Assembly (NCBI GenBank): GCA_044892505.1
Contig: CM097882.1
Location: 433,256,001-433,320,000, forward strand
Direction: 5' to 3'
DNA length: 64,000 nt
Source of the DNA: Schmidtea nova
Lineage: Eukaryota
Below are positions 50,029-62,673 of this stretch, piece after piece (position 1 is the stretch's first letter; each line of letters opens with the position of its first letter). The notes under the pieces were generated by a model, which was not told the DNA's origin, did not search any database, and saw only the letters and a list, made by a program, of their open reading frames with translations. Made by a program: the position numbers and the translations under genes.

Positions 50029-53000
50029 GAAAAACGCCAACTAAGTAAATTCAACATAAACGCGATATATTTCGATTGTATAACAATCTTCTTCATGCAG
50101 CAATCAGGATAATCGATAATAAATCGAAAATATGCAATAATCATTTTCAAACTATATCAAAAATTAATTTTTTTTAAAAATAAAATTTAATTTTTTTACA
50201 TAAAATTTAAAATATTAATTAATAAACATATATAAAAATTTTTCAAAGTTCAACATACAATTTAAAAATTTTTTTTAAAAATAAAAATATTCTCAACAAA
50301 CAAACATAATTATGCCAAATCCAAAAATTAATGCTCAAGTTGCCTGATTCACAGATATTTTGAATGTGTTTAAGTATTTAGATGTTATATGTTGCGAATT
50401 GTGTTTGTGGTATAATTATGTTATTATAAAAATTTAAATTGTATGTTGAATTTTGAATTTTGAAAAATTTTTATGTTTGTTTATTAATTAATTTTAAAAA
50501 ATTTTATGTAAAAAAATTAAATTTTGTTTTTAAAAAAATTAATTTTGATATAGTTTGAGGATGATTATTATTGATTAATTTGTTTAGATATTGCAGATTT
50601 TTTATTTTTTATTGATTATCCTAATTGCTGACTGAAGAAGTTTGTTATACAATCGAAATATATCGTGTTTATGTTGAATTTACTTAGTTAGCGTTGTTCT
50701 ATTATTAAATCATTGCCNNNNNNNNNNNNNNNNNNNNNNNNNNNNNNNNNNNNNNNNNNNNNNNNNNNNNNNNNNNNNNNNNNNNNNNNNNNNNNNNNNN
50801 NNNNNNNNNNNNNNNNNNNNNNNNNNNNNNNNNNNNNNNNNNNNNNNNNNNNNNNNNNNNNNNNNNNNNNNNNNNNNNNNNNNNNNNNNNNNNNNNNNNN
50901 NNNNNNNNNNNNNNNNNNNNNNNNNNNNNNNNNNNNNNNNNNNNNNNNNNNNNNNNNCTTCGATTTTTATGAAATATTTTTCCGTAGTTAGAAAAGACTC
51001 GTTCTCAGTTAGAGGATGTCAAACAGTCAAGTGACAATAAATATGATAATTTGTCCTCTGAAGTGAGGCGACGCGAAGAAATAATTGCCCAGCTGCGTTC
51101 TGAATTGACGCAAACCGCGCGCACAGTCACTCGGTCAACAGAAGTAATATTGCATTGAATAATTTTATCTAATTGAATAATTTTATGATACTGATTGTAT
51201 GAATATTGAAACCGAGATTCATTTTAGGTGGACAATGCAGTCAAAGAAAAGAATATTCATTTGGAGAAAACAGTGAAACAAAAAGAGCAACAAGTAAAAT
51301 TAATGTGTTTACATTTAAAATTTGTGAATTTATTAGCATTTCATTTTGCATAAGGATAGATATCCCCACAATGATGCCATGGCAATGAAACTTGCTTTTA
51401 CATGCTGTAGAAATTAGCGTATGACTGGGATAGTAATTTTTTGGTAAAACTGCCTATTATGACATTGCTATTTATTCCTAAATTGTTTTTTATCTGTCGA
51501 ATGTAGGCAAATAAGAATATATCTCATTCTTTATCTCTCCTTCCAAGACATGTTTTATACCAGAACTGCTATTTATAGGTCGTATTAAAAATGCGACAAA
51601 AAATATTAAAGATTAATTTAGCTCAACGCAATTATTTTCAGGTCTTAGCACGATATCTATCATGAGTTCTGGAAGTTTGAAATATCAATTCTACAAGACA
51701 TCGTATTATTTGCTTCAAGCCACGCAGAACCTCGCACCTTTATTTAATATAGGAGTTGGGAACCAGTGGCTCTTACCTCGAAAAAATGCCACTCTCTTAA
51801 ATAATCAAAAAATCGGAAAAAAAATATCTAAGCAAGTTATTTCGAAATTATTACGAATATCAGAGGACGAATTTATATATTTCGAAAATTTGCGCAATTT
51901 TAGGATGAAATTAAGTGCAGAAACTGATGAAACTGATCATAAAGTATTTATTGATACGACTACTACAATTGTACATCAATTTGCAGCCAGGTTTAAAGAT
52001 TTCAGAAAATACAATTGCGATGGGATGTTTAACGAACATACTAAAATGCAGTGGCGTCACTAGGGGGTGCATGGGTGGGGTGCGAACCGCACCGGGTGAC
52101 ACCATCACAAGGGGTGACACGAAAATGCAAAATATCACTGTCTATGATTCTATGTCACTCCATGAAATTATTCTTATGCATTATTTCAGCCAGCTGGCCC
52201 AGCGCCCAGCAACAGAAATGTATTATATTATTGAAATACAAAAATATCTCTGTGTCAATGCTCTTGACAATTGTCAAAAACATCGATTTTTTGACCGTCG
52301 ATAGGCTCCCCAGCACTCCACTTCAGCTTTTTCGCATAGTTAGTTAGTTCATGTCTAACATAACCTACAATAGTGTTTGTTTTTCCCGCTACATGTGCTT
52401 AAAAACGCTTTGTTTTTGTCGTTGTATTGGATGTTGGTGGTTTTGAAGTTGTCGTTAGGTGGGTTGACACCAACCCTAGTGACGCCACTGCTGAAATGTG
52501 TATAAATTTGGTGTTTAATTCAGACAAAGTCTAACTATATTCATAAAAATCTATTCAATTTTATGAATTGTTTTATAAATTCTCAAAGAAGGACTAAAAA
52601 GATTTTATTTTCATGATTCTAAATTTGTAATTTTTTTGCTGGTATTTTAGTTGTTTATTTAGTTCATTTGTTTGAATTGACAGTAAATGTTGGATTTTTT
52701 TAAAAATTTAAGTTGTAATCATTTTGCGAAATTGCAATTAGAAAATCGCATTGAAGGGTTTCCTACTTTTCCTAATGCTGTTGTTGAGTATTGCAATCGA
52801 ATTTGCGTAGAATCCTAAGAATCTATTCTTTACAATAATCCTGTTAATAGTACATTTCAAGATGTAAGTATGCTGGAAATTAAATGCCCAAAAGAAAAAA
52901 ACCTCGCGAAAATAAGGAAACATTGAAATTTGTAATTTACCAATTAAAATGCAATGTAAAACTGATTGACATAAGAGCTTTTCCGCAAATAAGTACCGCA

Positions 53001-54797
53001 GAACTACAATTAGAACTTATAGAAATCAAGAATACAAGTATCTGGGTTGATAAATTTGAAGATGAGTCAGAAATGAAGGATACGTCGCAAGATATTATAT
53101 TCAAATGCTGGGATTTACTGCCAAATATTTATCCAAATTCTAGAAACCTTGCTTTTGGCCTATTAACAAATTTTAAGTCTACATATAATTGCGAACAATT
53201 TTTTCATTGATGAATTTCATTCAAAACAAATACCGGAGTAGACTAGCAGATGAACGTTTGAAAGCCTTAGTGCAGTTAAAATATACGAAATATTAACCAA
53301 ATTTGGCACGGTTATCCAAGAAAGTTCAAAACCAGAAATTGCACTAGATTTACTTTTTATATACATAATATATTTTATGAATTTTATTGTTTTTATTTTG
53401 AATTAATAGAAATCAGTTGATTTTTTTATCATGGCTCCACAATATTGCATTTGAATTTTTTTATAGTTTTGGCTCTTAGATTTTAAAAGGTTCCCGACCG
53501 ATGATTCAATGCATTAGTAATCATAAAGGTCATCATCAATCCTGAAAATGCGCCTGACCATAAAGTAAACATAAGCAACAATACAAAAAAGTTATATGAC
53601 CAATTGTTTAAAAAATTACGATATAACCATATATAAACTGCCTGTCCCCTGTCACAAATATCTAAATTTAAGTAATCTTAGTTATTATTAATCTACTATT
53701 AAAATTTAGTTCTATCATTATAATAATTTTAATTTAAAGTTTTTTATTATTTTATTACTATTTTTATTGTTTTTTTATTATTTTTCATTTTTAGCACTGT
53801 CTGTCCTTTTACATGTACATCGCCACCCATATCTAATTTTATATAAATTCAAAAAAAATGCAACCGTCATTTAACGGGCTTAATATACAGTTAGTTAATT
53901 AATTAAAATCTAATTAAACAATGATAAAATATGCAAAACTTATAAAAATTACCATAGGTTTATCCGAAGAAAAAAATTAAATTTTAAAATTACAAAGCTA
54001 AAATAAAAACAAATTTTGTATAATATCAATTTTGACCAGGAGAAAACTTTTAAATTATATTCAGAGTTGAAATTTAAAAATTGAAGGTATTTTATTTTGG
54101 ATGCTTCTTGTAGTAAAAGAGATTTTTTAAAGATTTACAATAATATGTTGACAGTTATTTCTCCAACTTAAGAAACATGAGAAGTAGGGAGAAAATCTAG
54201 TTTTTACACAGGAAAAATGGATACATTTTTTCTAATCTAAAAATAAATTTTGAAATAAATTCACAAAAAATAATAAGAAAAACATTTTCTAAACCTCTAA
54301 ACCAGCGTTTCGCAACCCTTTTACGATTATCGCCCATTCCCAATTACTAAAAATTCAAATCGCCCAGGTTGGGAAACACTGGGGTAAAGTAGATGTGACT
54401 ACATCATGTAGTCTACATGTAAGGTGATGTGTGTGCGTCATATATTGTTATACTATAAAGATTNNNNNNNNNNNNNNNNNNNNNNNNNNNNNNNNNNNNN
54501 NNNNNNNNNNNNNNNNNNNNNNNNNNNNNNNNNNNNNNNNNNNNNNNNNNNNNNNNNNNNNNNNNNNNNNNNNNNNNNNNNNNNNNNNNNNNNNNNNNNN
54601 NNNNAACCTGGACGATATCAGCCACTAGTAGGCGATTTGAAATTTTAGGTGGGTGATGTTTTTGCGATGTTTTACCGATGTTTTTGAGATGTTTTTGCGA
54701 TGTTTTTGCGATGTTTTTGCATATGTCAACCTTTTGACACTGCCTTAAAATTTTATTATTTCCGTATCGTTCTAAATTCTAGAATCTAGATACAATC

Positions 54798-54889
<92 letters not shown>

Positions 54890-57529
54890 GATTGTATCTA
54901 GATTCTAGAATTTAGAACGATACGGAAATAATAAAATTTTAAGGCAGTGTCAAAAGGTTGACATATGCAAAAACATCGCAAAAACATCGCAAAAACATCG
55001 GTAAAACATCGCAAAAACATCGCAAAAACATCACCCACCTAAAATTTCAAATCGCCTACTAGTGGCTGATATCGTCCAGGTTGGGAAACACTGCTCAAAA
55101 CATTTATAATTAATACATTATTTGAAAAATAAAATATCTAAAAAATGAATGCAAAAAACTTTAAAAGCGAAAATAATACATAGTTAAAATATATTCACAG
55201 AAAGTGACAAAAATAGTGACAAATATTATAACTACAAGGTAATTCAGCTCCGTGTGGCCGTTTACAGTGCACATCATGCACACCCCTATCACTAGTCCTG
55301 CTCTTACAGCTTCTGTAAACCCAAAAAATGAAATATAAATAATTTTTAAATTAAAAAAATTAGTAGCATAAATACATATGCAAATATTAGATAGAGAAAA
55401 TAGGAAAATAATTATTAATATTTTGAAACAATAATTATTCCATTGAGACTTTCAGCAGTGTCCATAATCACATTCGATACTCTGGCTTTGTAGCTTTCAA
55501 TTTTAGCAAAACATTCCTAGAAAGATAATTTTTTCTTTTCTCCTTGTTCGGAAAGGATAATCTCTTCTCATTTCTGTCACAGGTCTGCATCAACTCTAGC
55601 TCAACATGTCTTATCATTAAAATGTTTTATCATTAAAAAGTTTTATCATTAAAAAAAAAGTTTTATCATTAAAAGTTTTATCATTAAAAAGTTTTATTCT
55701 TCATCTTTGACTTTTTTCAATTTAATTTATTTTCATTTTTTTCAGACAAAAAATTATTTTCCACCCTCCTATTCTACAAAAATAACTCTGATCTATTGTC
55801 TGAAAAAAATGAAATTTTAAAGTTTAGATTAATTTTCAGTCAATTGGAGTTAAATTATTTATTGCAACAATTTTAGCTTCAGAATTTACTAAAACATAAC
55901 AAAGAGCTGGAAGACCTAACAAAAAAGATGCAAGAAGAAATCTCACAGAAAGGAAACACAGCAACAACGGTTGAGAATCTCGAGCAAGAAATCGACTTCA
56001 TCAAGGAGCAACTAGACAATGCCAATCAAAGAAATGAGGCACTGACGGAAACAATGCTAAGTTCAAAAAGGTTCTATGAGGAATTCAAAGTGAATTCAGA
56101 CAATGTCGTTAGTGATTCTTGTCTATTGTTTGTCAATTTCCTGAAATGGACAATATTCAGATGAAAGGCCACATAAATACAATTGATAAGATAAAACAAG
56201 ATTACAGGGAGCTCGAGCTGAAACACAAAGATTGTCTTAGTACAATGAAGCAGCAAGGAGATAACACTCAACGCTTAGTCAAAGAAATTGCAGATCTTAC
56301 AGAAAAAGTAAATTCTTAATTTTTTATTTGACTTAACTTATGGTAAAGTGTATTTTAAAAATATTTTCCTTTCTAAATATAATAGTAGGACTTGTATTAA
56401 ACGCCGCTAACCCTTAGGGAGTCACAATAACTCGACGATACATAGAAATGTATTGGTTTCACAATTACAATCCATGAGACAGCAGAGAGTATGAAGAGTC
56501 ACTACCGCATTTTAAGCTTGAATTTTTGCTAAAAACTATTTAGTTTTAAAGAAAAATTACTAGAGTAATTATAAATCCAAAGAACTACAAAAAATGCAAA
56601 GAAAAGATGATAATAAAAAAGGATAACGAAGACACCATATCGTCAGATGAAGCCATTGTATGGATTATGGAGCAGTAAATACAAAGACAACCAAACCCAT
56701 TTATCTGATTCCAACATATTTTGAAAGTTTTCCCTAAATTATTCTCTGCCTAAAGGTTTGACGAGTGAATATTAACAAGTTACACTTAAACGGCCAGACA
56801 TATCCAAGATATGTATTAGCGTGAGATTTGGTCGGTTTGAATGCCCTTTGAACTCTCTGGGGTTCCAGCAACCTCCCAAAATATGATAAATGCTACTTTA
56901 TAGAAAGAAAATTGTATGTCATGACTGATTTTTTAAAACTATTTATTATTAAAAGTTAAAGATTCAGGATCAAAGTTATCACCTGCTAAATGTAATTTTA
57001 TGAAACGAGATATAAATGATATTATAATATCATAACGCAGACCCTTTTAATAACCCGCCATACGGGTATTCATAATAGAAATAAGTTCGACTGAAAATGT
57101 TAATTATGCATTAAATTACAAAAAAATCCTAAAAAACAATCATCTACTTTTTGGTGTAAACACAATCAATGTTTGCAATGGCATTCGATGGCATTTCTAA
57201 TCCAGACGGGAGTAGGTAGAAGTGTGAAGCCTGGAACAAAGACACTATGACTTATCGATGACTCAAACAAAGACATTATGACTCAACCCACGGGGTAGAA
57301 ATTTTTTCCTTATGACTCATCGATGAATTTATCGATGACTCATTTCGATGACTTCATTCCAAAGGTCAAATAAGGTCTCACCTTCAAACGAGGGTATCAT
57401 TCGAAAGGTCTTTGAGAGGTCTATACAAAGTTGATACCCTCGAATCTTTATGGAGGGTCCTGAACCTTCAAAGGGTCCAAAACCTTCAAATTTTAAATAT
57501 ATATATATATATATATATATTTCAAACCT

Positions 57530-57563
<34 letters not shown>

Positions 57564-57889
57564 TTCCAAAGGTAATTGAAGGTGAGTATGATGGTCATAC
57601 CTCCAAAGGTCTATAGTATGCTTTCAACCCTGAAATGGTCCCCAACCTTAAAAGTTTTTCAAACTTTACAAGTTATATATTATTCCAAAGGACTTTTGAT
57701 GGTGAGTTTAAAGGTCATACCCTTGAAGGGCCCAAGGTTCAAAAATTTAAAGCCTAACAATATACATGCCATTCGAAAGGTATTTGAGATATAAGTATCA
57801 TGGTCATACTTTCGAAGGTTAATGGTGAGTGCTGAACCTTCAAATCTTTAAAAACCTTCAAGAGGTCCAAAATCTTTAAAACTATATAG

Positions 57890-57965
<76 letters not shown>

Positions 57966-60900
57966 TCAAACTAAAAGTAATTCAAAGGTCAGTTCGAAGG
58001 TCATACCCTCAAAGGGTCCAAGGTTCAAATTTTTAAAACCTTATAATATATATAAACCAGCTGGGGTAACCCGGCGTTGCTCGGGCCAATATTTAAAAGT
58101 AAGCAAAGTATATAACTCAAACAAGGGTTGATGTCCATCTGGAACTTTGTTATACCGATTTTGGGCAATGCACAGTAAAATACTGCAAGATCTTTTAGTG
58201 TTAGACAATAATCCCACAAAATATAACCCTGTTGGTGAAAGCTATGAAATAACCGTAAGACATTAAGAAAGTAATAAGTTTTGCTTATTTTATATTTAAA
58301 ACAACAAATAAAGAATTCCTAAAAAACATTTACTCAAATCTTTCAAATCATCTCGCGCACTGAAAGAAGAAAACTTGAACATGTTACAAAAAGTTAAATC
58401 ATGTGTAATTTCTTCACATTTGATTATTATTGTTTTATTTTAAGTTTATTTCTTTCACTATTTAGAATGTGTACTTCAGCTTTTGTTTATAAACTTTACA
58501 TGAAAATGATTTTGGCTCCAGAGTTATATGGGCTCCAGATCCTTCCGAAAACGTGATCCGCCCCCCCCCTAAAACAGGGGTGCTCTATAAATTTTGTTTT
58601 ATAAAGTGTCCACCAAATCGCACAGTTGATGGTGCCATTTTGGGCCTCTCTGACCTCGGAGATCGGGTACGGGTCGAAAACCATCTAAGAACCTTCTCTC
58701 CCTCGATGACACGCCCCTTGCCAAAATTCATTGAGATCGATCCAGAGTTTTGGATTTCTATAGATATTTATTTGCCCTTTATATATTAGATAAATGTTTT
58801 CTTTAATTAAATTATGACGCGTATTCATCTGAAAAAAATCTCTGCTATAATGTACAATCTTAATAATATGTTAAAAGGTTAATTATTACTACTGTCATAA
58901 TTCTTCATTATTACATAGCAAATTATTATTGCACGTAGGCGGCAAATTATTTAAGCGCATCCCTGATTGTTAATAACATAATTTTGAATTAATAGAAGTA
59001 AAATCTTTTTAATTTGTTTAATGGTTGTTCAGCGTTTTGCCTTTTGTAATTTCATTTATCTTCATTTAGTTTTCTACTATAGATCAATGCTTTTTGTTAC
59101 TGTCTTGATGCTTGAGAGTATATCGAGTGGCGAATGAAACCACAATTGGCATCGCCATTAAAGCCAGTTATATGTAGTCGTTATAAATAGTCGTTGATAT
59201 GTCGTTTCAGTTATTCTTTCTTGGAAAAATGCTTGAAATCTTACTAGTTATAACCATAGAAAATGAACATTTAAATTTCATACAAAAGCAATAAGTTCAT
59301 CGTGGATAAAAGTTTATAATTGAAAAGTTGTAATCGAAGTTCATGTCGATTATCAAAAGGTTCGTCCAAAACTAAATGGACTTCGGAGTCGATGTTTTCC
59401 GATTAATTTTGCTGCAGATTCATAAGATATAAAAATCTTTCAATTGTAGAAAAAGACCCAATTGTTATCAAGATTAATTCAGGATATTGTTCATTCTATG
59501 GAAATTAGCTCCCGAATAAATTGGAACCGCAAGTAGGGCACAAGCAGCCCTTTGCATTATTGGTATATTGAATACATTGGTCAAATGTGAAATCCGGTTC
59601 CCCGTACAATAACGGATCCATGTCACCATAAGGTATACCATCTATTATCCCTAAACCCGTAGAATACCCAGTCTCACACGGCTCAACAAGTATACGGTTA
59701 GACAAAATATTTCTTCGGTAATTCAAACGGTTGATCAACTTCGATGACAATCGACTCGATACCGTCTTTTTACTTTTAACAAGACACTTATACATTTTTG
59801 TTAAAAATCTTACGTACCCAGACGAACAACTGGTATCGAAATTATCGCTGACAGAAGATGTTGATAGACCTAAATATTTCTTTCTTTTATTCTTGTTATG
59901 GGATCTATATTTTGCACGCTTTTTACTTTCTGATTTTTTTCGATAGTCAACTCTTTCCTCTTTTTCATATTTTCCACTGTCACTATCAGAAGTAAGATCA
60001 TCGGTTAATTTCTCATTTATTGAATTGTATTTAGGAACCGATTTTTCTAATTTTGGTTCTATTTGAAGGTTTTTAGAACTTTCTTGGTAATTCTTAGTAT
60101 TGTAATCCTTTTCATTTTGTTGAGTATTTAAATGCATATTACCTACATATTCTTCTTTAAGCGCATTTTCAGCTACTTCTTTTGGGGCATTGTCAACTAC
60201 TTCTTCCTTATGTACAGATGTGAGATCTTGTCGAGATACCATTTTGTCCCCAGGTAAATTCTGCCTGTCTTTATCATTTGAAGAATCAATTATTCCTCGA
60301 GGTACTTCATTTGTACTATCCGTTTTGGCCTCGGATAAATTTTGTTTCTTTTCATCAGTTGTTTCTTGACTTGCTTGATTTTTAGTGTCTTCAGAAATAA
60401 TTTCATTATCCTGCTCATTTGTTTCATTATCCTCACTGGGCGTAATTGGAGCTTCTGATTCGTTATCATCAAAAAGCTTTTCTAATGCTTCCTGCGCCTT
60501 TTCTTTGGCTTTATTTTTAGCCTTTTTGCTGGCATCTTTTTGACCTTTTTTAGATGTTTCTTTAGTAGCCTTTTTACCTTGTTTTTTACTTTGATCCTTG
60601 GCAGCCTTCTTTCCTTTTTCTTTAGCAGCCTTCTTTCCTTTTTCTTTAGCAGCCTTCTTTCCTTTTTCTTTAACTGCTTTCTTTCCTTTTTCTTTAACTG
60701 CTTTCTTACCTTTTTCCTTAGCTGCTTTTTTAATTTTATCTTTAGCAACCTTTTTACCCTGTTCTTTAATCTGTTTCCCAGCTTGTTTATTGGCTTGTTT
60801 ACTAACCTGTTTTGAAGTTTGCTTACTGGCTTGCTTACTAGTTTGCTTAGTGGCTTGTTTACTAGCTTGCTTAGTGGCTTGTTTACTAGCTTGCTTAGTT

Positions 60901-61639
60901 GCCTGTTTACTAGCTTGCTTAGTTGCCTGTTTACTAGCTTGCTTAGTGGCTTGTTTACTAGCTTGTTTGGTAGCTTGTTTGGTAGCTTGTTTGGTAGCTT
61001 GTTTGGTAGCTTGTTTGGTGGCTTGTTTGGTGGCTTGCTTAGCGGCTTGTTTACTAGCTTGCTTAGCAGCATGTTTACTAGCTTGCTTAGCGGCTTGTTT
61101 ACCAGCTTGTTTAGCTGCTTGCTTTCCAACTTGTTTTCCGGCTTGCTTTCCCCCAACTTTTAAGCCAGTTGCTCCAAATTTAGCAGCCAACCCGGCCATT
61201 AATTAAAAGTTTAGGATATTATTATATTGTTCATATTCATTTAAACATTATGAATTTCCACAAGTCAATAAAACATATTATTATTATTATTATCAAATAT
61301 TTATTATTCAGATAAGAATTAATGACCATAACTATTCTGAGCAAGCTAAGCAACTTCATACGCTGAAATTGGAAAATGCCGAGTCAAAGAACTTGGTTAG
61401 AATGTACATTTTATTTGCGAAATACTTTCAATATTTAAATCTAGATTGAGAACTTCAAGCTCCAACTAGTTGATGCTTCAATGACCGAAACCAATTTGAC
61501 TAAAACCTTGACCAACGAAAGTCAATCTCGTCAGAGTTACATTGACCAATTGTCACAGGAAACTATTCATTTGAATAGAGTTATAGACGATCTTAAAGAC
61601 AAAATCAAAATACGAGACGAAACAATCGGAAAACTTAAC
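20198..61639 (+). CDS. Large multi-exon coiled-coil protein gene (partial model; identity unknown; 3' end not resolved)
   Basis: AG/GT-bounded exons that join in frame: 20198-20404; tentative 24256-24291 and 24506-24551; 30766-30829; 31409-31465; 31515-31661; 41044-41127; 50988-51143; 51228-51293; 55877-56089; 56161-56307; 61312-61395; 61445-61639. The translation is rich in E/K/Q/L with heptad character (e.g. LEKTRSQLEDVKQSSDNKYDNLSSEVRRREEIIAQLRSEL). Further exons may lie in N-gaps. Linkage of the first exons to the coil exons is inferred. Confidence 0.75.
22140..23723 (-). mobile_element. piggyBac remnant
   Basis: Acidic N-terminus then DKDGTEW...AAHNII...DAFLLFFNDNFIN, typical of the piggyBac N-terminal region. 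A TTAA-flanked end lies at 23723-23727. An internal ~90-bp direct repeat occurs at about 22022 and 22726. Confidence 0.5.
24570..25500 (-). pseudogene. Heavily degraded Tc1/mariner/IS630-family transposase
   Basis: Fragments GNHTKSE...TGVPYSRSSIYAI (HTH-like) and HPIKSYF..LKTKVYDN (NPIENxW-like), with many stops. Confidence 0.45.
25583..26521 (+). mobile_element. Non-autonomous Helitron, interrupted by a solo LTR
   Basis: A|TCTAATATATAAA 5' end and CTAG|T 3' end preceded by a degenerate hairpin (GGCCCTAGCAACGC). Homologous to the copy at 58057-58790. Confidence 0.8.
25982..26218 (+). mobile_element. Solo LTR (237 bp)
   Basis: TGTGATG...TTTTACA with a perfect 5-bp TSD ATGTT (25977-25981, 26219-26223), internal TATAAATA and AATAAA. 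Removing it restores colinearity with the second Helitron copy. Confidence 0.88.
28229..28693. repeat. 13-bp minisatellite, about 35 copies, AATGATTGGC(AAT/TAT/AAC)
   Basis: Read directly from the sequence. It produces the spurious LLPIIIANHYCQS ORFs (39 nt = 3 units). Confidence 0.95.
28712..30390 (+). mobile_element. IS630/Tc1-like element with long, internally repetitive inverted arms; right end runs into a gap
   Basis: TA|CACACTTGATAAAGGCTGTGCC left end. About 20-bp subterminal repeats TATAGACAAAAATATTAATA at 28900-29030 are inverted at 30290-30390. The transposase lies between them. Confidence 0.82.
29086..30140 (+). pseudogene. IS630/Tc1-like DD34E transposase, frameshifted
   Basis: HTH (KTITKDLNLSSKTVYRWIER), FLDKTG, LMDNVRFH, IPPYSPELNPIEEIFS; 34 residues counted between D and E. 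Two frameshifts near 29705-29750 and a stop at 30000. Confidence 0.85.
30766..31661 (+). CDS. Coiled-coil gene exons 30766-30829, 31409-31465, 31515-31661
   Basis: PSGTSGYESGEAGLSFRSNSA | CTVQTFNSTSSLLQKLQNE | LTLRTTELHDKENEYFNLKASYE...LSKDKQ, with canonical splice sites. Confidence 0.75.
31089..31257. repeat. Abutting termini of two IS630-like copies forming a 138-bp palindrome
   Basis: ...CAAGTGTG TATA CACACTTG...; 31120-31257 is self-complementary with one mismatch. Confidence 0.85.
33062..33587 (+). pseudogene. Polinton small basic core-like protein
   Basis: Lys/Arg-rich, ending KQQEGFIAALLPLALSLLGGAG, which resembles the QxGGFLPALL motif of small Polinton proteins. One frameshift and one stop. 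Confidence 0.55.
33615..34739 (+). pseudogene. Polinton-type retroviral-like integrase with C-terminal chromodomain
   Basis: INDLWQMDLMEM...KGYKYILTCINVYS, KAALVEKFNRTL, YKIGDHVRISK...WSDEAYII...GKFFEQEL, YYVKWHGYKEPSWI. Contains an N-gap and stops. Confidence 0.88.
34740..35763 (+). pseudogene. Polinton minor capsid (penton) protein
   Basis: MNFYTILPSNSCPDIHPDNTASKF.INLQNPIYLDGIWKVAL at the start and PIYLTVSTSCINNIEINIRDDRGNLINF...LTLHFRK at the end. Confidence 0.78.
35756..36090 (+). pseudogene. Conserved small Polinton protein (TGGELP.FVGKQYGSGWL motif)
   Basis: MSNPDIISFY...*TGGELPNFVGKQYGSGWLKTIERFPLSILKRLG, with premature stops. Confidence 0.55.
36100..36560 (+). pseudogene. Polinton major capsid protein, N-terminal fragment
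   Basis: QLEFYINGSSTEYLNLKDT.LSLTVKVV...NNYLFHILFKD...NNTYAHKAIIETVLNYTSDTK; truncated. Confidence 0.75.
36699..37760 (+). pseudogene. Protein-primed family B DNA polymerase, N-terminal fragment
   Basis: GSKFIDTPKSLRKKKCLVNVVNEDDFSFL and FVIYADFETIL (ExoI motif). The polymerase domain is absent. Confidence 0.75.
39371..39400. repeat. (TA)n microsatellite; others at about 39712-39765, 41873-41953, 54802-54885, 57895-57959, 62675-62748
   Basis: Read directly from the sequence. Confidence 0.95.
41044..41127 (+). CDS. Coiled-coil gene exon
   Basis: TTTCAG | MRQLQQKLVSVEGSATRSYGDCEAMRVE | GTAAGC; 84 nt, phase 0/0. Confidence 0.75.
41194..41496. mobile_element. hAT MITE
   Basis: TIRs CAGTGGTTCTT / AAGAATCACTG; 8-bp flanks AATTAAAT / ATTTAAAT (7/8). 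Confidence 0.75.
42307..42512. repeat. Second end-to-end junction of IS630-like termini
   Basis: The right end finishes at 42377 plus TA. A 22-nt spacer carries a partial TIR copy. TA plus the left end starts at 42404. N-gaps lie on both sides. Confidence 0.82.
44371..45177 (+). CDS. gag: Gag with three zinc knuckles
   Basis: CFKCNKEGHIARFC, CNKCGKRGHIAVNC and CYECGGGHLAR (third one degenerate), after a capsid-like region. Confidence 0.85.
   Translation: MASRTEKEYLQEYLFKDKLSKLITFKKRGIENHLIEDHLILVRSFIDQFAKHNLVTEEEKIKVFLKYTRQERDDTVVDFAKRVKMRCLSYEGEKEKMMIHAFIEGVRNQTLSVALKIREPKTLEEAIEEIKMEHVGVKEKENEYNQVRKLATTYEGTINFLKREIDRLNKIIEELRKEQLRKPNKNQREVREDISSYQQKVTCFKCNKEGHIARFCLKKDDNGNIDTRTCNKCGKRGHIAVNCRIGTNRMNAIKCYECGGGHLARQEE
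45440..49357 (+). pseudogene. pol: Ty3/gypsy pol (protease, RT, RNase H, integrase), disrupted
   Basis: VMFDTVADLNVIS (protease), RMCVDYRALN, FSTLDLSSGYYQV, MPFGLCSAPATFQ, YLDE, LDTDAS, RTDHQALKW, TFTSPYYPQSDGLVE. Multiple stops and frameshifts. Confidence 0.92.
49862..49993 (-). repeat. IS630-like right terminus
   Basis: GATCAAAATT...GCACAGCCTTTATCAAGTGT|ATA; same family as 28712, 31186 and 42377. Confidence 0.75.
50026..50717. mobile_element. Foldback element with about 290-bp imperfect inverted arms (MULE-MITE-like)
   Basis: AATAGAAAAACGCCAACTAAGTAAATTCAACATAAACGCGATATATTTCG... at 50026 mirrors the sequence ending at about 50705. The outer end reads GGCAATG on the minus strand. Confidence 0.75.
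50988..51293 (+). CDS. Coiled-coil gene exons 50988-51143 and 51228-51293
   Basis: 156-nt and 66-nt phase-0 exons with canonical sites and an 84-nt intron. Confidence 0.8.
51600..53500 (+). mobile_element. Degraded hAT transposase and right end, interrupted by a MITE
   Basis: IVHQFAARFKDFRK, LQLELIEIKN, NFKSTYNCEQFF, YRSRLADERL; terminus AAAAGGTTCCCGACC. Confidence 0.7.
52049..52490. mobile_element. hAT MITE nested in a hAT
   Basis: TIRs CAGTGGCGTCACTAGGG / CCCTAGTGACGCCACTG; 8-bp flanks CTAAAATG / CTGAAATG (7/8). Confidence 0.85.
54303..55093. mobile_element. Composite hAT MITE ending in a large hairpin centred on (TA)n
   Basis: Left TIR CAGCGTTTCGCAACC; right TIR GGTTGGGAAACACTG at both 54381 and 55093. 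Outer flanks CTCTAAAC / CTCAAAAC (7/8). The interval 54605-55082 is an inverted repeat. Confidence 0.72.
55877..56307 (+). CDS. Coiled-coil gene exons 55877-56089 and 56161-56307
   Basis: LQNLLKHNKELEDLTKKMQEEISQK...FYEEFK | MKGHINTIDKIKQDYRELELKHK...DLTEK, with a 71-nt GT-AG intron. Confidence 0.82.
56560..57030 (+). pseudogene. Ty3/gypsy RT remnant
   Basis: CMDYGAVNTKT..PIY.IP, QVTLKRPDISK...RFGRFE, GSKLSPAKCNF. Confidence 0.6.
57240..58035. repeat. Complex repeat: TGACTCA/ATCGAT motifs followed by AAGGTC-rich units interleaved with (TA)n
   Basis: ATGACTCATCGATG resembles the Polinton TIR subrepeats. TCGAAGGTCATACCC..AAGGGTCC..AGGTTCAAA-like units recur in both orientations. Confidence 0.6.
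58057..58790 (-). mobile_element. Non-autonomous Helitron (same family as 25583-26521)
   Basis: On the minus strand: A|TCTAATATATAAA 5' end, hairpin CCCGAGCAACGCCGGG, CTGG|T 3' end. Confidence 0.85.
59505..61199 (-). CDS. Intronless 564-aa low-complexity protein (KQAS/KQAT and KEKGKKAA repeats, acidic middle, basic/Ser-rich segment, Cys-containing tail), nested antisense in an intron
   Basis: A 1695-nt uninterrupted ORF in AT-rich DNA. About 330 C-terminal codons are non-repetitive and still open, so the ORF is not just a repeat artefact. No transposase or retro motifs seen. Confidence 0.8.
   Translation of the reverse strand: MAGLAAKFGATGLKVGGKQAGKQVGKQAAKQAGKQAAKQASKHAAKQASKQAAKQATKQATKQATKQATKQATKQATKQASKQATKQASKQATKQASKQATKQASKQATKQASKQATKQTSKQASKQTSKQVSKQANKQAGKQIKEQGKKVAKDKIKKAAKEKGKKAVKEKGKKAVKEKGKKAAKEKGKKAAKEKGKKAAKDQSKKQGKKATKETSKKGQKDASKKAKNKAKEKAQEALEKLFDDNESEAPITPSEDNETNEQDNEIISEDTKNQASQETTDEKKQNLSEAKTDSTNEVPRGIIDSSNDKDRQNLPGDKMVSRQDLTSVHKEEVVDNAPKEVAENALKEEYVGNMHLNTQQNEKDYNTKNYQESSKNLQIEPKLEKSVPKYNSINEKLTDDLTSDSDSGKYEKEERVDYRKKSESKKRAKYRSHNKNKRKKYLGLSTSSVSDNFDTSCSSGYVRFLTKMYKCLVKSKKTVSSRLSSKLINRLNYRRNILSNRILVEPCETGYSTGLGIIDGIPYGDMDPLLYGEPDFTFDQCIQYTNNAKGCLCPTCGSNLFGS
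61312..61639 (+). CDS. Coiled-coil gene exons 61312-61395 and 61445-61639
   Basis: IRINDHNYSEQAKQLHTLKLENAESKNL | IENFKLQLVDASMTETNL...DETIGKLN, with a 49-nt GT-AG intron. Confidence 0.8.
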
Positions 61640-62673
61640 GTAATTTTTCTATTAACTTTTTCTTGAAATAAAGACATTTTTTTATATTTTCAAATATTTT
61701 GCATTGTTTTTATTATTATGATTTTGAAGCTTCTCTCGTCTTATGCTTAAAGGTTAACATCACAAGTATAATTGCTACGACGGCGTGAGACATTTCGAGA
61801 AATTCTTCATTAACTACTTAATGTAAACAGTTACTTTGAATTTTTGGTCAAAAAATAATAAAAATATTTTTAAGTAAATTATATGTGAGTATTTAAAAGA
61901 ATATTCTAAATTCATTAATCAAATGATTTTCATTTAGTGATTCATATAAACCCCTTTACACTTGTTTTCATACATTAAGAGATGCTATAATATAAGATAA
62001 AAATTATCAATATCAAATGAAAACTTACGTGGGTGTTAAATTTTAACTTTACATAGTTTAAGAGATTTAACATCTCATAGACAAATTGGAAGAAAAAATA
62101 AATTATACACACAAGCACAGCACACAATGAAAAATGCATGCAAACTTTTAAAGTCAACATATTTTACGCGATTAAGAGATCTATAATAAATTTATTTATT
62201 TTTTTAATTTTTGGGTAAAATTTGGAATATTTCCTAGGACAGTTGCCGAGAAAATGAACAAATAACGTCGTAAGTTTTATTTTAATGAATTTTAATATAA
62301 AACTTCATATATTTTCGAAAATCCCCTTGAAATATTTTCAATTTATTGACAATTAAACATTTTTATGCAGCAATTTAGCTATTTTAGAGATCTCAGATAA
62401 TGCAGTAAAATAAAATTTGGCAGTGCTTGAAATAACATACAATGAATAAAATTTTGTATAAAAATAGACAAAATTAGTATTCTAGATATTTACTTTCTAG
62501 CTTTTGAAAACAAAATATTATAATGGAATTTCTGAAATTTACCAAATCAGAATAATCAAAGCCATGTAAAATGGCGAAAACTACTTCCGATTTGAAGATT
62601 TCTTATAATATCCAAAAAAATATTTCAGAGATAAATAGAAAATTTTTAGTTAATAATTCTTGTAGTGCCTCCG

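Follow-up and report, generated by a model that had tools for sequence, protein, structure and literature searches.

A single-exon antisense open reading frame within an intron of a planarian coiled-coil gene probably encodes a lysine-rich repeat protein with an acidic middle

The window analysed here is a 64,000-nucleotide stretch of the Schmidtea nova genome, to which all positions given without a contig name refer. It contains, on the minus strand, a single-exon open reading frame (ORF; 59505..61199) whose translation is 564 aa followed by a stop (62 kDa, pI 9.8). On the opposite strand, judging from the sequence, lies a host intron (56308..61311 (+); GT-AG, phase 0 at both ends) flanked by coiled-coil exons at 56161..56307 (+) and 61312..61395 (+), the latter only 113 nt from the nested ATG. 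The whole coding sequence falls within this one intron of another gene, and the placement given in the initial annotation was borne out by both the translation and the position of the exons. The host gene has more than 20 exon candidates (50985–61640 (+) of the window and C1:433320001–433346400, i.e. it extends about 26 kb beyond the window), many of its introns are about 50–60 nt and it encodes a long coiled-coil protein. A search for its 5′ end gave no further host-like exons in the part of the window that precedes about 50,990, nor in the 140 kb before the window. Comparisons of the host protein gave generic coiled-coil matches only; its last exons presumably resemble PMFBP1/CCDC18. An exon of the next gene downstream (L022:287–475) may resemble the ROC-COR region of DAPK1. 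The same intron also carries very high-copy non-coding repeats with TA runs (57130–58560; summed contig depth thousands-fold above the flanks) and an element ending near 58790, which we take to resemble a Helitron-associated short element. Just upstream of the window (C1, about 433240500–433253400), units of about 554 nt are arrayed in tandem over at least 13 kb.

The nested frame opens at an ATG that a single codon separates from the preceding in-frame stop and that has a weak context (T at −3); GC content per 20 nt is 0.40–0.60 within the ORF and 0.05–0.20 just upstream of the ATG. Its non-repetitive part comprises 323 codons with no stop, against 193 codons for the longest frame in 2000 shuffles, and the remaining five frames over the ORF contain 10–48 stops each. 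The region 55700–61800 was compared with short-read contigs from four public runs whose behaviour is that of DNA data; all come from one study and from no more than two samples. A short-read contig spanning 59049–60630 showed 0 differences, confirming most of the ORF, and no frame-breaking difference was seen across the four runs. One contig from one run is without one 24-nt unit, the frame being kept, which may reflect assembly collapse. The first ATTAAA-type poly(A) signal candidates (59008..59022 (−)), consensus matches only, lie about 480 nt after the stop. Between 59270 and 59504 (−) the frame of the ORF has just three stops in about 78 codons, with GC near 0.30, and this stretch is possibly a decayed longer 3′ end.

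Splice sites were ranked with a crude model built from 15 donors and 17 acceptors chosen by eye, one of the donors being probably misplaced. A candidate in-frame internal intron (59813–59682) has by this measure a fair donor (rank 14/93) and a poor acceptor (rank 129/192) and appears unsupported; an acceptor directly after the ORF stop ranked 174/192. None of the 17 host acceptors has G at −3. Because the acceptor of the candidate intron is poor, the reading of the ORF as intronless stands, though unproven.

The length of the ORF proves little alone, since 12-bp satellites elsewhere in this genome open frames of 500–800 codons. Two such near-perfect 12-bp arrays (C1:512067472–512071104 and C2:252731643–252735254; 150–200 units) lie in the gag-like region of related LTR retroelements, directly after the CCHC knuckle, and are open in several frames. 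The repeat units of the nested ORF differ mostly at silent positions. When changes between distinct units were counted on a minimum spanning tree (transition biases 1–8), 17/29 and 11/23 were synonymous, versus 19–30% expected overall and 21–30% for the first set. P ranged from 8e-6 to 1e-3 in the first set and from 1e-3 to 0.04 in the second; these values are approximate, as units are not independent. The pN/pS ratio between units was 0.21 for the 12-mers and 0.06–0.23 for the 24-mers; in both sets the ORF's own frame gave the smallest value of all six. Moreover, 17 of the 31 units in the ORF array are distinct, versus 2–3 among the 20–197 units of five satellite arrays in the same genome. 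The ORF is not mere satellite read-through. As its units differ mainly synonymously, it likely makes a protein, and we regard it as very probably protein-coding and likely a real lineage-restricted flatworm gene. The bias shows past selection on the protein and is not proof of present expression. Among the many frames that satellites open in this genome, a real low-complexity gene can be told apart by the excess of silent changes in its repeats.

The predicted protein starts with a short Gly/Ala/Lys leader (residues 1–18; 61146..61199 (−)), which is not a signal peptide. It is followed by a QxxK array (residues 19–142; 60774..61145 (−)), encoded by a 12-bp repeat and devoid of acidic residues, and by a Lys-rich block (residues 143–241; 60477..60773 (−)) that includes exact 24-bp octamer repeats at 60600–60719 (−). 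The KQAS/KQAT-type array described in the initial annotation is present but consists of 31 QxxK units (124 aa), and the exact KEKGKKA(A/V) octamers number five, not six, with degenerate copies beside them. Next comes an acidic spacer of 177 aa (residues 242–418; 59946..60476 (−); net charge −22, pI 4.4; low model confidence), then a basic cluster (residues 419–443; 59871..59945 (−)) that fits the bipartite nuclear-localisation pattern of PROSITE and is predicted to act as a nuclear import signal. A Ser/Arg/Lys linker (residues 444–505; 59685..59870 (−)), which contains the candidate intron mentioned above, leads to a Gly/Pro/Tyr/Cys tail (residues 506–564; 59508..59684 (−)) with a C-x9-CxCxxC cluster and no confident fold. 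The Cys-rich tail was correctly noted before, but GCLCPTCG is not its very end, as five residues follow the CxCxxC-G motif.

With a net charge of +57 and a pI of 9.82 overall, and −22 over residues 242–418, this is a basic protein with an acidic middle. Residues 1–241 contain 77 Lys (32%), 52 Ala (22%), 13 acidic residues and neither Arg nor Pro (f+ 0.32, f− 0.05; f+ 0.24 in the QxxK array); the first Pro is residue 251, leaving residues 1–250 proline-free. The earlier description of the protein as charge-segregated holds over long distances along the chain, where the SCD of 23.1 lies below that of every one of 200 shuffles; it fails over short distances, since shuffled sequences also reach the kappa of 0.19. 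The stated lack of a hydrophobic signal peptide agrees with a best 19-residue hydropathy of 0.56, a membrane span being also absent. In a single-sequence AlphaFold model, helices were placed at residues 21–117, 133–206 and 217–244 (block pLDDT 68–92 over residues 21–110), so that residues 21–244 are predicted to form long Lys/Ala/Gln helices. Beyond residue 250 confidence is low (full model: mean pLDDT 53, pTM 0.23), and the C-terminal 121 aa modelled alone gave no fold (pLDDT 33).

Homologues of the nested protein were sought in several collections. None was found among 260 and 73 candidates scored at E ≤ 1, among 1.84 billion representatives or among PDB sequences, and the Atlas gave no usable match. 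Pattern matches tested in viral contigs (0/26) and metagenome contigs (0/424) were likewise negative, phages gave none, and no Pfam domain or NCBIfam match was detected. PHROG 23568 (E = 3.7e-18, residues 17–52) and PHROG 8332 (E = 8e-4) match within the QxxK array, probably for compositional reasons. A foreign origin, which the initial annotation had suggested among others, is thus unsupported, the searches of protein representatives and of viral, metagenome and phage sequences being blank. As a control, a 216-aa host exon was searched and also had no homologue (0/2064, longer proteins only, E ≤ 1e-5); protein collections therefore probably lack close relatives, and orphan status is weakly tested and relative to the collections used. 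None of four repeat motifs of the protein occurred in the open-access literature searched, and no description of the nested gene was found in open-access literature listings. The novelty implied in the initial annotation is weakened by the equally blank host exon and by opposite-strand nesting being the usual arrangement of nested genes, according to the available part of a Drosophila survey (PMC3814207).

We tentatively favour the view that the product is a nuclear DNA-condensing basic protein, probably of the germ line, with the acidic spacer as a built-in shield. Its proline-free polycation would neutralise and compact linker DNA much as H1 tails do, although no globular domain accompanies it; the acidic spacer might fold back on the basic half and shield it until use or, alternatively, be trimmed off from a precursor; and the Cys cluster could bind zinc or cross-link. 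There are precedents in the accessible portions of two sources, namely acidic tails of HMG proteins that occlude DNA-binding regions (PMC4207994) and insect sperm basic proteins trimmed from precursors (PMC12216123). The bipartite localisation pattern and the absence of a signal peptide favour a nuclear role. No S/T-P-x-K/R CDK site occurs in the whole protein; without such sites it would resist cell-cycle decondensation, which would suit spermatids, and proline-free germ-line H1 stretches lack CDK sites as well. The germ-line assignment is proposed on the analogy with germ-line H1 tails in that source and on the prior that Drosophila nested genes peak in testis in 44% of cases versus 14% of controls, 56% peaking elsewhere (PMC3814207, as far as its available part reports). 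Several points weigh against this reading: the testis prior comes from flies, the structure model is single-sequence, the basic half has no Arg (residues 1–241), unlike protamines, and canonical H1 genes are present in the genome, so that no gap needs filling. Nor does composition single out DNA, because microtubules, actin, RNA and membranes are likewise bound by polycations rich in Lys and Ala.

A bolder version of the DNA-condensing proposal would make the product a flatworm-specific, self-shielding sperm chromatin protein that arose de novo from short tandem duplications. Its lysine helix, 250 residues long and free of proline, would take the place of an H1 tail or protamine although it has no histone ancestry, its acidic chaperone would be part of the same chain, and the gene would have entered the intron as coding sequence alone, flanked by a target-site duplication; we consider this improbable. 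Planarians are a group for which open-access listings gave no sperm nuclear basic protein; should the nested protein package DNA in their spermatids, it would be a candidate for one and a natural test of the idea that proline-free helical lysine tails are potent condensers. Planarians permit direct RNAi tests. If it is just another fast-evolving nested orphan, the result is a useful annotation and little more.

The main rival, somewhat unlikely in our estimation, is that the gene is real and encodes a cytoskeletal structural protein of sperm or ciliated cells, cylicin-like or microtubule-binding, in which the Lys-rich helices would attach to actin or to the acidic tails of tubulin, with cross-links formed by the Cys tail. 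The long helices predicted in the basic half would suit such a role, and the host itself encodes a long coiled-coil protein. Cylicins CYLC1 and CYLC2 are described, in the part of the source available, as large, with Lys-rich repeats, KKD/KKE motifs and a pI above 10, and the nested protein resembles them in its size, its Lys-rich repeats and its pI near 10 (PMC10684152). However, KKD/KKE tripeptides are absent, the pI of 9.82 is not above 10 and there is no Pfam match to the cylicin N-terminal domain, so the protein was rejected as a cylicin proper; unlike cylicins it also has the nuclear-localisation pattern, and a Foldseek search with the full model returned 0 matches at E ≤ 0.001.

It is unlikely that the gene, if real, encodes a scaffold of somatic nuclei or nucleoli that forms condensates with RNA through its charge blocks, with no role in germ-line chromatin. 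The basic-acidic-basic blocks, the import-type pattern and the long-range charge segregation beyond all 200 shuffles would be expected of such a scaffold, whereas the short-range patterning is ordinary and neither an RNA-binding domain nor RGG-type repeats are present. Nucleolar scaffolds are, besides, usually conserved.

Very unlikely, in our view, is a stranded mobile-element cargo gene that was copied into the intron and is either kept or decaying there; giant planarian Ty3/gypsy elements, with their accessory genes, would be one possible source. That the ORF is intronless and has a short direct repeat close to both ends speaks for this origin. The two copies (59481..59494, 10 nt past the stop, and 61213..61234, which has 8 additional nt and is separated from the ATG by 13 nt) form a weak repeat found post hoc. 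Its 14 nt are significant in flanks of 40–60 nt (P = 0.004–0.03) but not in flanks of 110 nt (P = 0.33–0.46), and it is not a common repeat end, as a search of the whole genome with a pattern derived from it gave 23 matches. It is a possible target-site duplication and, as such, hints at insertion. However, the multi-copy state, the LTR/pol context and the splice acceptor before the ATG that characterize the giant Ty3/gypsy accessory gene were all lacking: the 75 nt that precede the ATG contain no AG, and neither an LTR, pol nor a terminal inverted repeat was found adjoining the ORF. In the flanks, no inverted repeat longer than an AT-rich 12-mer was seen (TA runs only, in the 25 longest of 172 pairs).

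Protein searches of the genome with residues 404–564 and 242–418 returned the locus itself only (1/6 and 1/68 candidates scored), so that the gene is single copy and high-copy mobile-element matches were not found. At the DNA level, 58900–60500 gave the self match and 40 short matches, all to the flank at about 58950–59100 (40/137 candidates scored). Of 18,418 candidates for the basic half, 150 were scored and 38 matched; as paralogues these were rejected, 10 of 12 loci examined (of 20) being satellites or other low-complexity frames, while in the other two the matched frame did not pass the filter applied. The retroposed origin raised in the initial annotation fared poorly, with the weak direct repeat as its one sign: the genome searches found no intron-containing parent gene, no part of the ORF matching beyond itself, and there is no poly(A) tract (no run of A in the 714-nt 3′ flank exceeds 5 nt). 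The suggestion of a host gene free of mobile-element features, also made there, is supported in the form of a nested, antisense, single-copy and probably protein-coding gene.

Finally, it is highly improbable that the ORF is a recent pseudogene or a silent frame grown from a 12-bp satellite and not functioning now, for although long satellite-opened frames exist in this genome, the start context is weak and no orthologue is known, the 323 stop-free non-repeat codons, the synonymous excess between units and the lack of any frame-breaking difference in four DNA runs (at most two samples) argue against it.

Some further features of the genome were recorded. An LTR-type retroelement at C1:433156001–433166000 has several long frames, one of which (1163 codons) looks membrane-anchored. 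On the mitochondrial contig C101, COX1 occurs at two places separated by 23 kb, so that the contig is likely a doubled circle; a broken copy of the gene is also found in the nuclear genome, at C1:352.4 Mb. In mitochondrial COX1, AAA stands at 2/2 places where the aligned mammalian chain has Asn, with AAG at three others, as under table 9, the mitochondrial table common to flatworms and echinoderms. Taken together with the short AT-rich introns, this code suggests a flatworm, probably a planarian, whereas triosephosphate isomerase placed the organism no more closely than among animals.

Among known systems, Drosophila nested genes offer a genomic parallel in being wholly intronic and, in 71% of cases, on the opposite strand; they mostly arose by duplication of a known parent according to the available part of PMC3814207, and the nested ORF is unlike most of them in that no parent was found in the genome. 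At the protein level, the likeness to linker-histone tails pointed out initially holds for the Lys/Ala composition of the basic half; the winged-helix domain of linker histones is missing. H1 tails average K 34.6%, A 24.0% and P 10.6% (f+ 0.38, f− 0.03), and proline removal strengthened their DNA condensation, as reported in the accessible text of PMC11331069. Proline-free, predicted-helical stretches of up to 213 residues occur among the 94 tails treated there, in testis and sperm H1s. The nested protein shares with these germ-line tails (H1FNT/H1T2, sea-urchin sperm H1) its Lys/Ala composition, positive charge and long proline-free stretch predicted to be helical; its proline-free run of 250 residues exceeds those 213, whereas its QxxK array is less densely charged (f+ 0.24) than H1 tails (PMC11331069). 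In contrast to H1, the basic part stands at the N-terminus, is rich in Gln and consists of repeats of four and eight residues; the 177-aa acidic spacer and the Cys tail follow it, and there is no globular domain. A PF00538 search of the genome found three H1 loci, the nested locus not among them, and alignments to their three tails gave z-scores of −1.2 to 2.1 (nine comparisons), within the shuffle range, in a test limited by low complexity. The protein was accordingly rejected as an H1, having no globular domain and no likeness beyond composition to these three genes. Two of them, neighbouring intronless variants at C3:42.97–42.98 Mb, have Lys/Val/Asp-rich, proline-poor tails (3% Pro), unlike the C2 H1, and are candidates for germ-line H1s.

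Protamine-like sperm nuclear basic proteins, such as Mytilus PL-III and PL-IV, differ from the nested protein, which is known from sequence, in that the latter is 62 kDa, has a large acidic block and lacks arginine clusters in its basic half. It resembles protamine-like proteins and protamine precursors in being basic, low-complexity, Cys-containing and hard to annotate and, possibly, in being trimmed from a precursor, as far as such proteins are described in the available part of PMC12216123. At 564 aa and with 0 Arg in residues 1–241, it was rejected as a protamine of the small arginine-clustered type. The axoneme-associated Mst101 proteins of Drosophila hydei have helical Lys/Ala/Glu repeats, to which the Lys/Ala-type repeats described here are similar, but in Mst101 the unit is longer and includes Cys. 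Orphan genes nested antisense within others are of a common kind; the basic-acidic-basic-Cys layout of this one is unusual.
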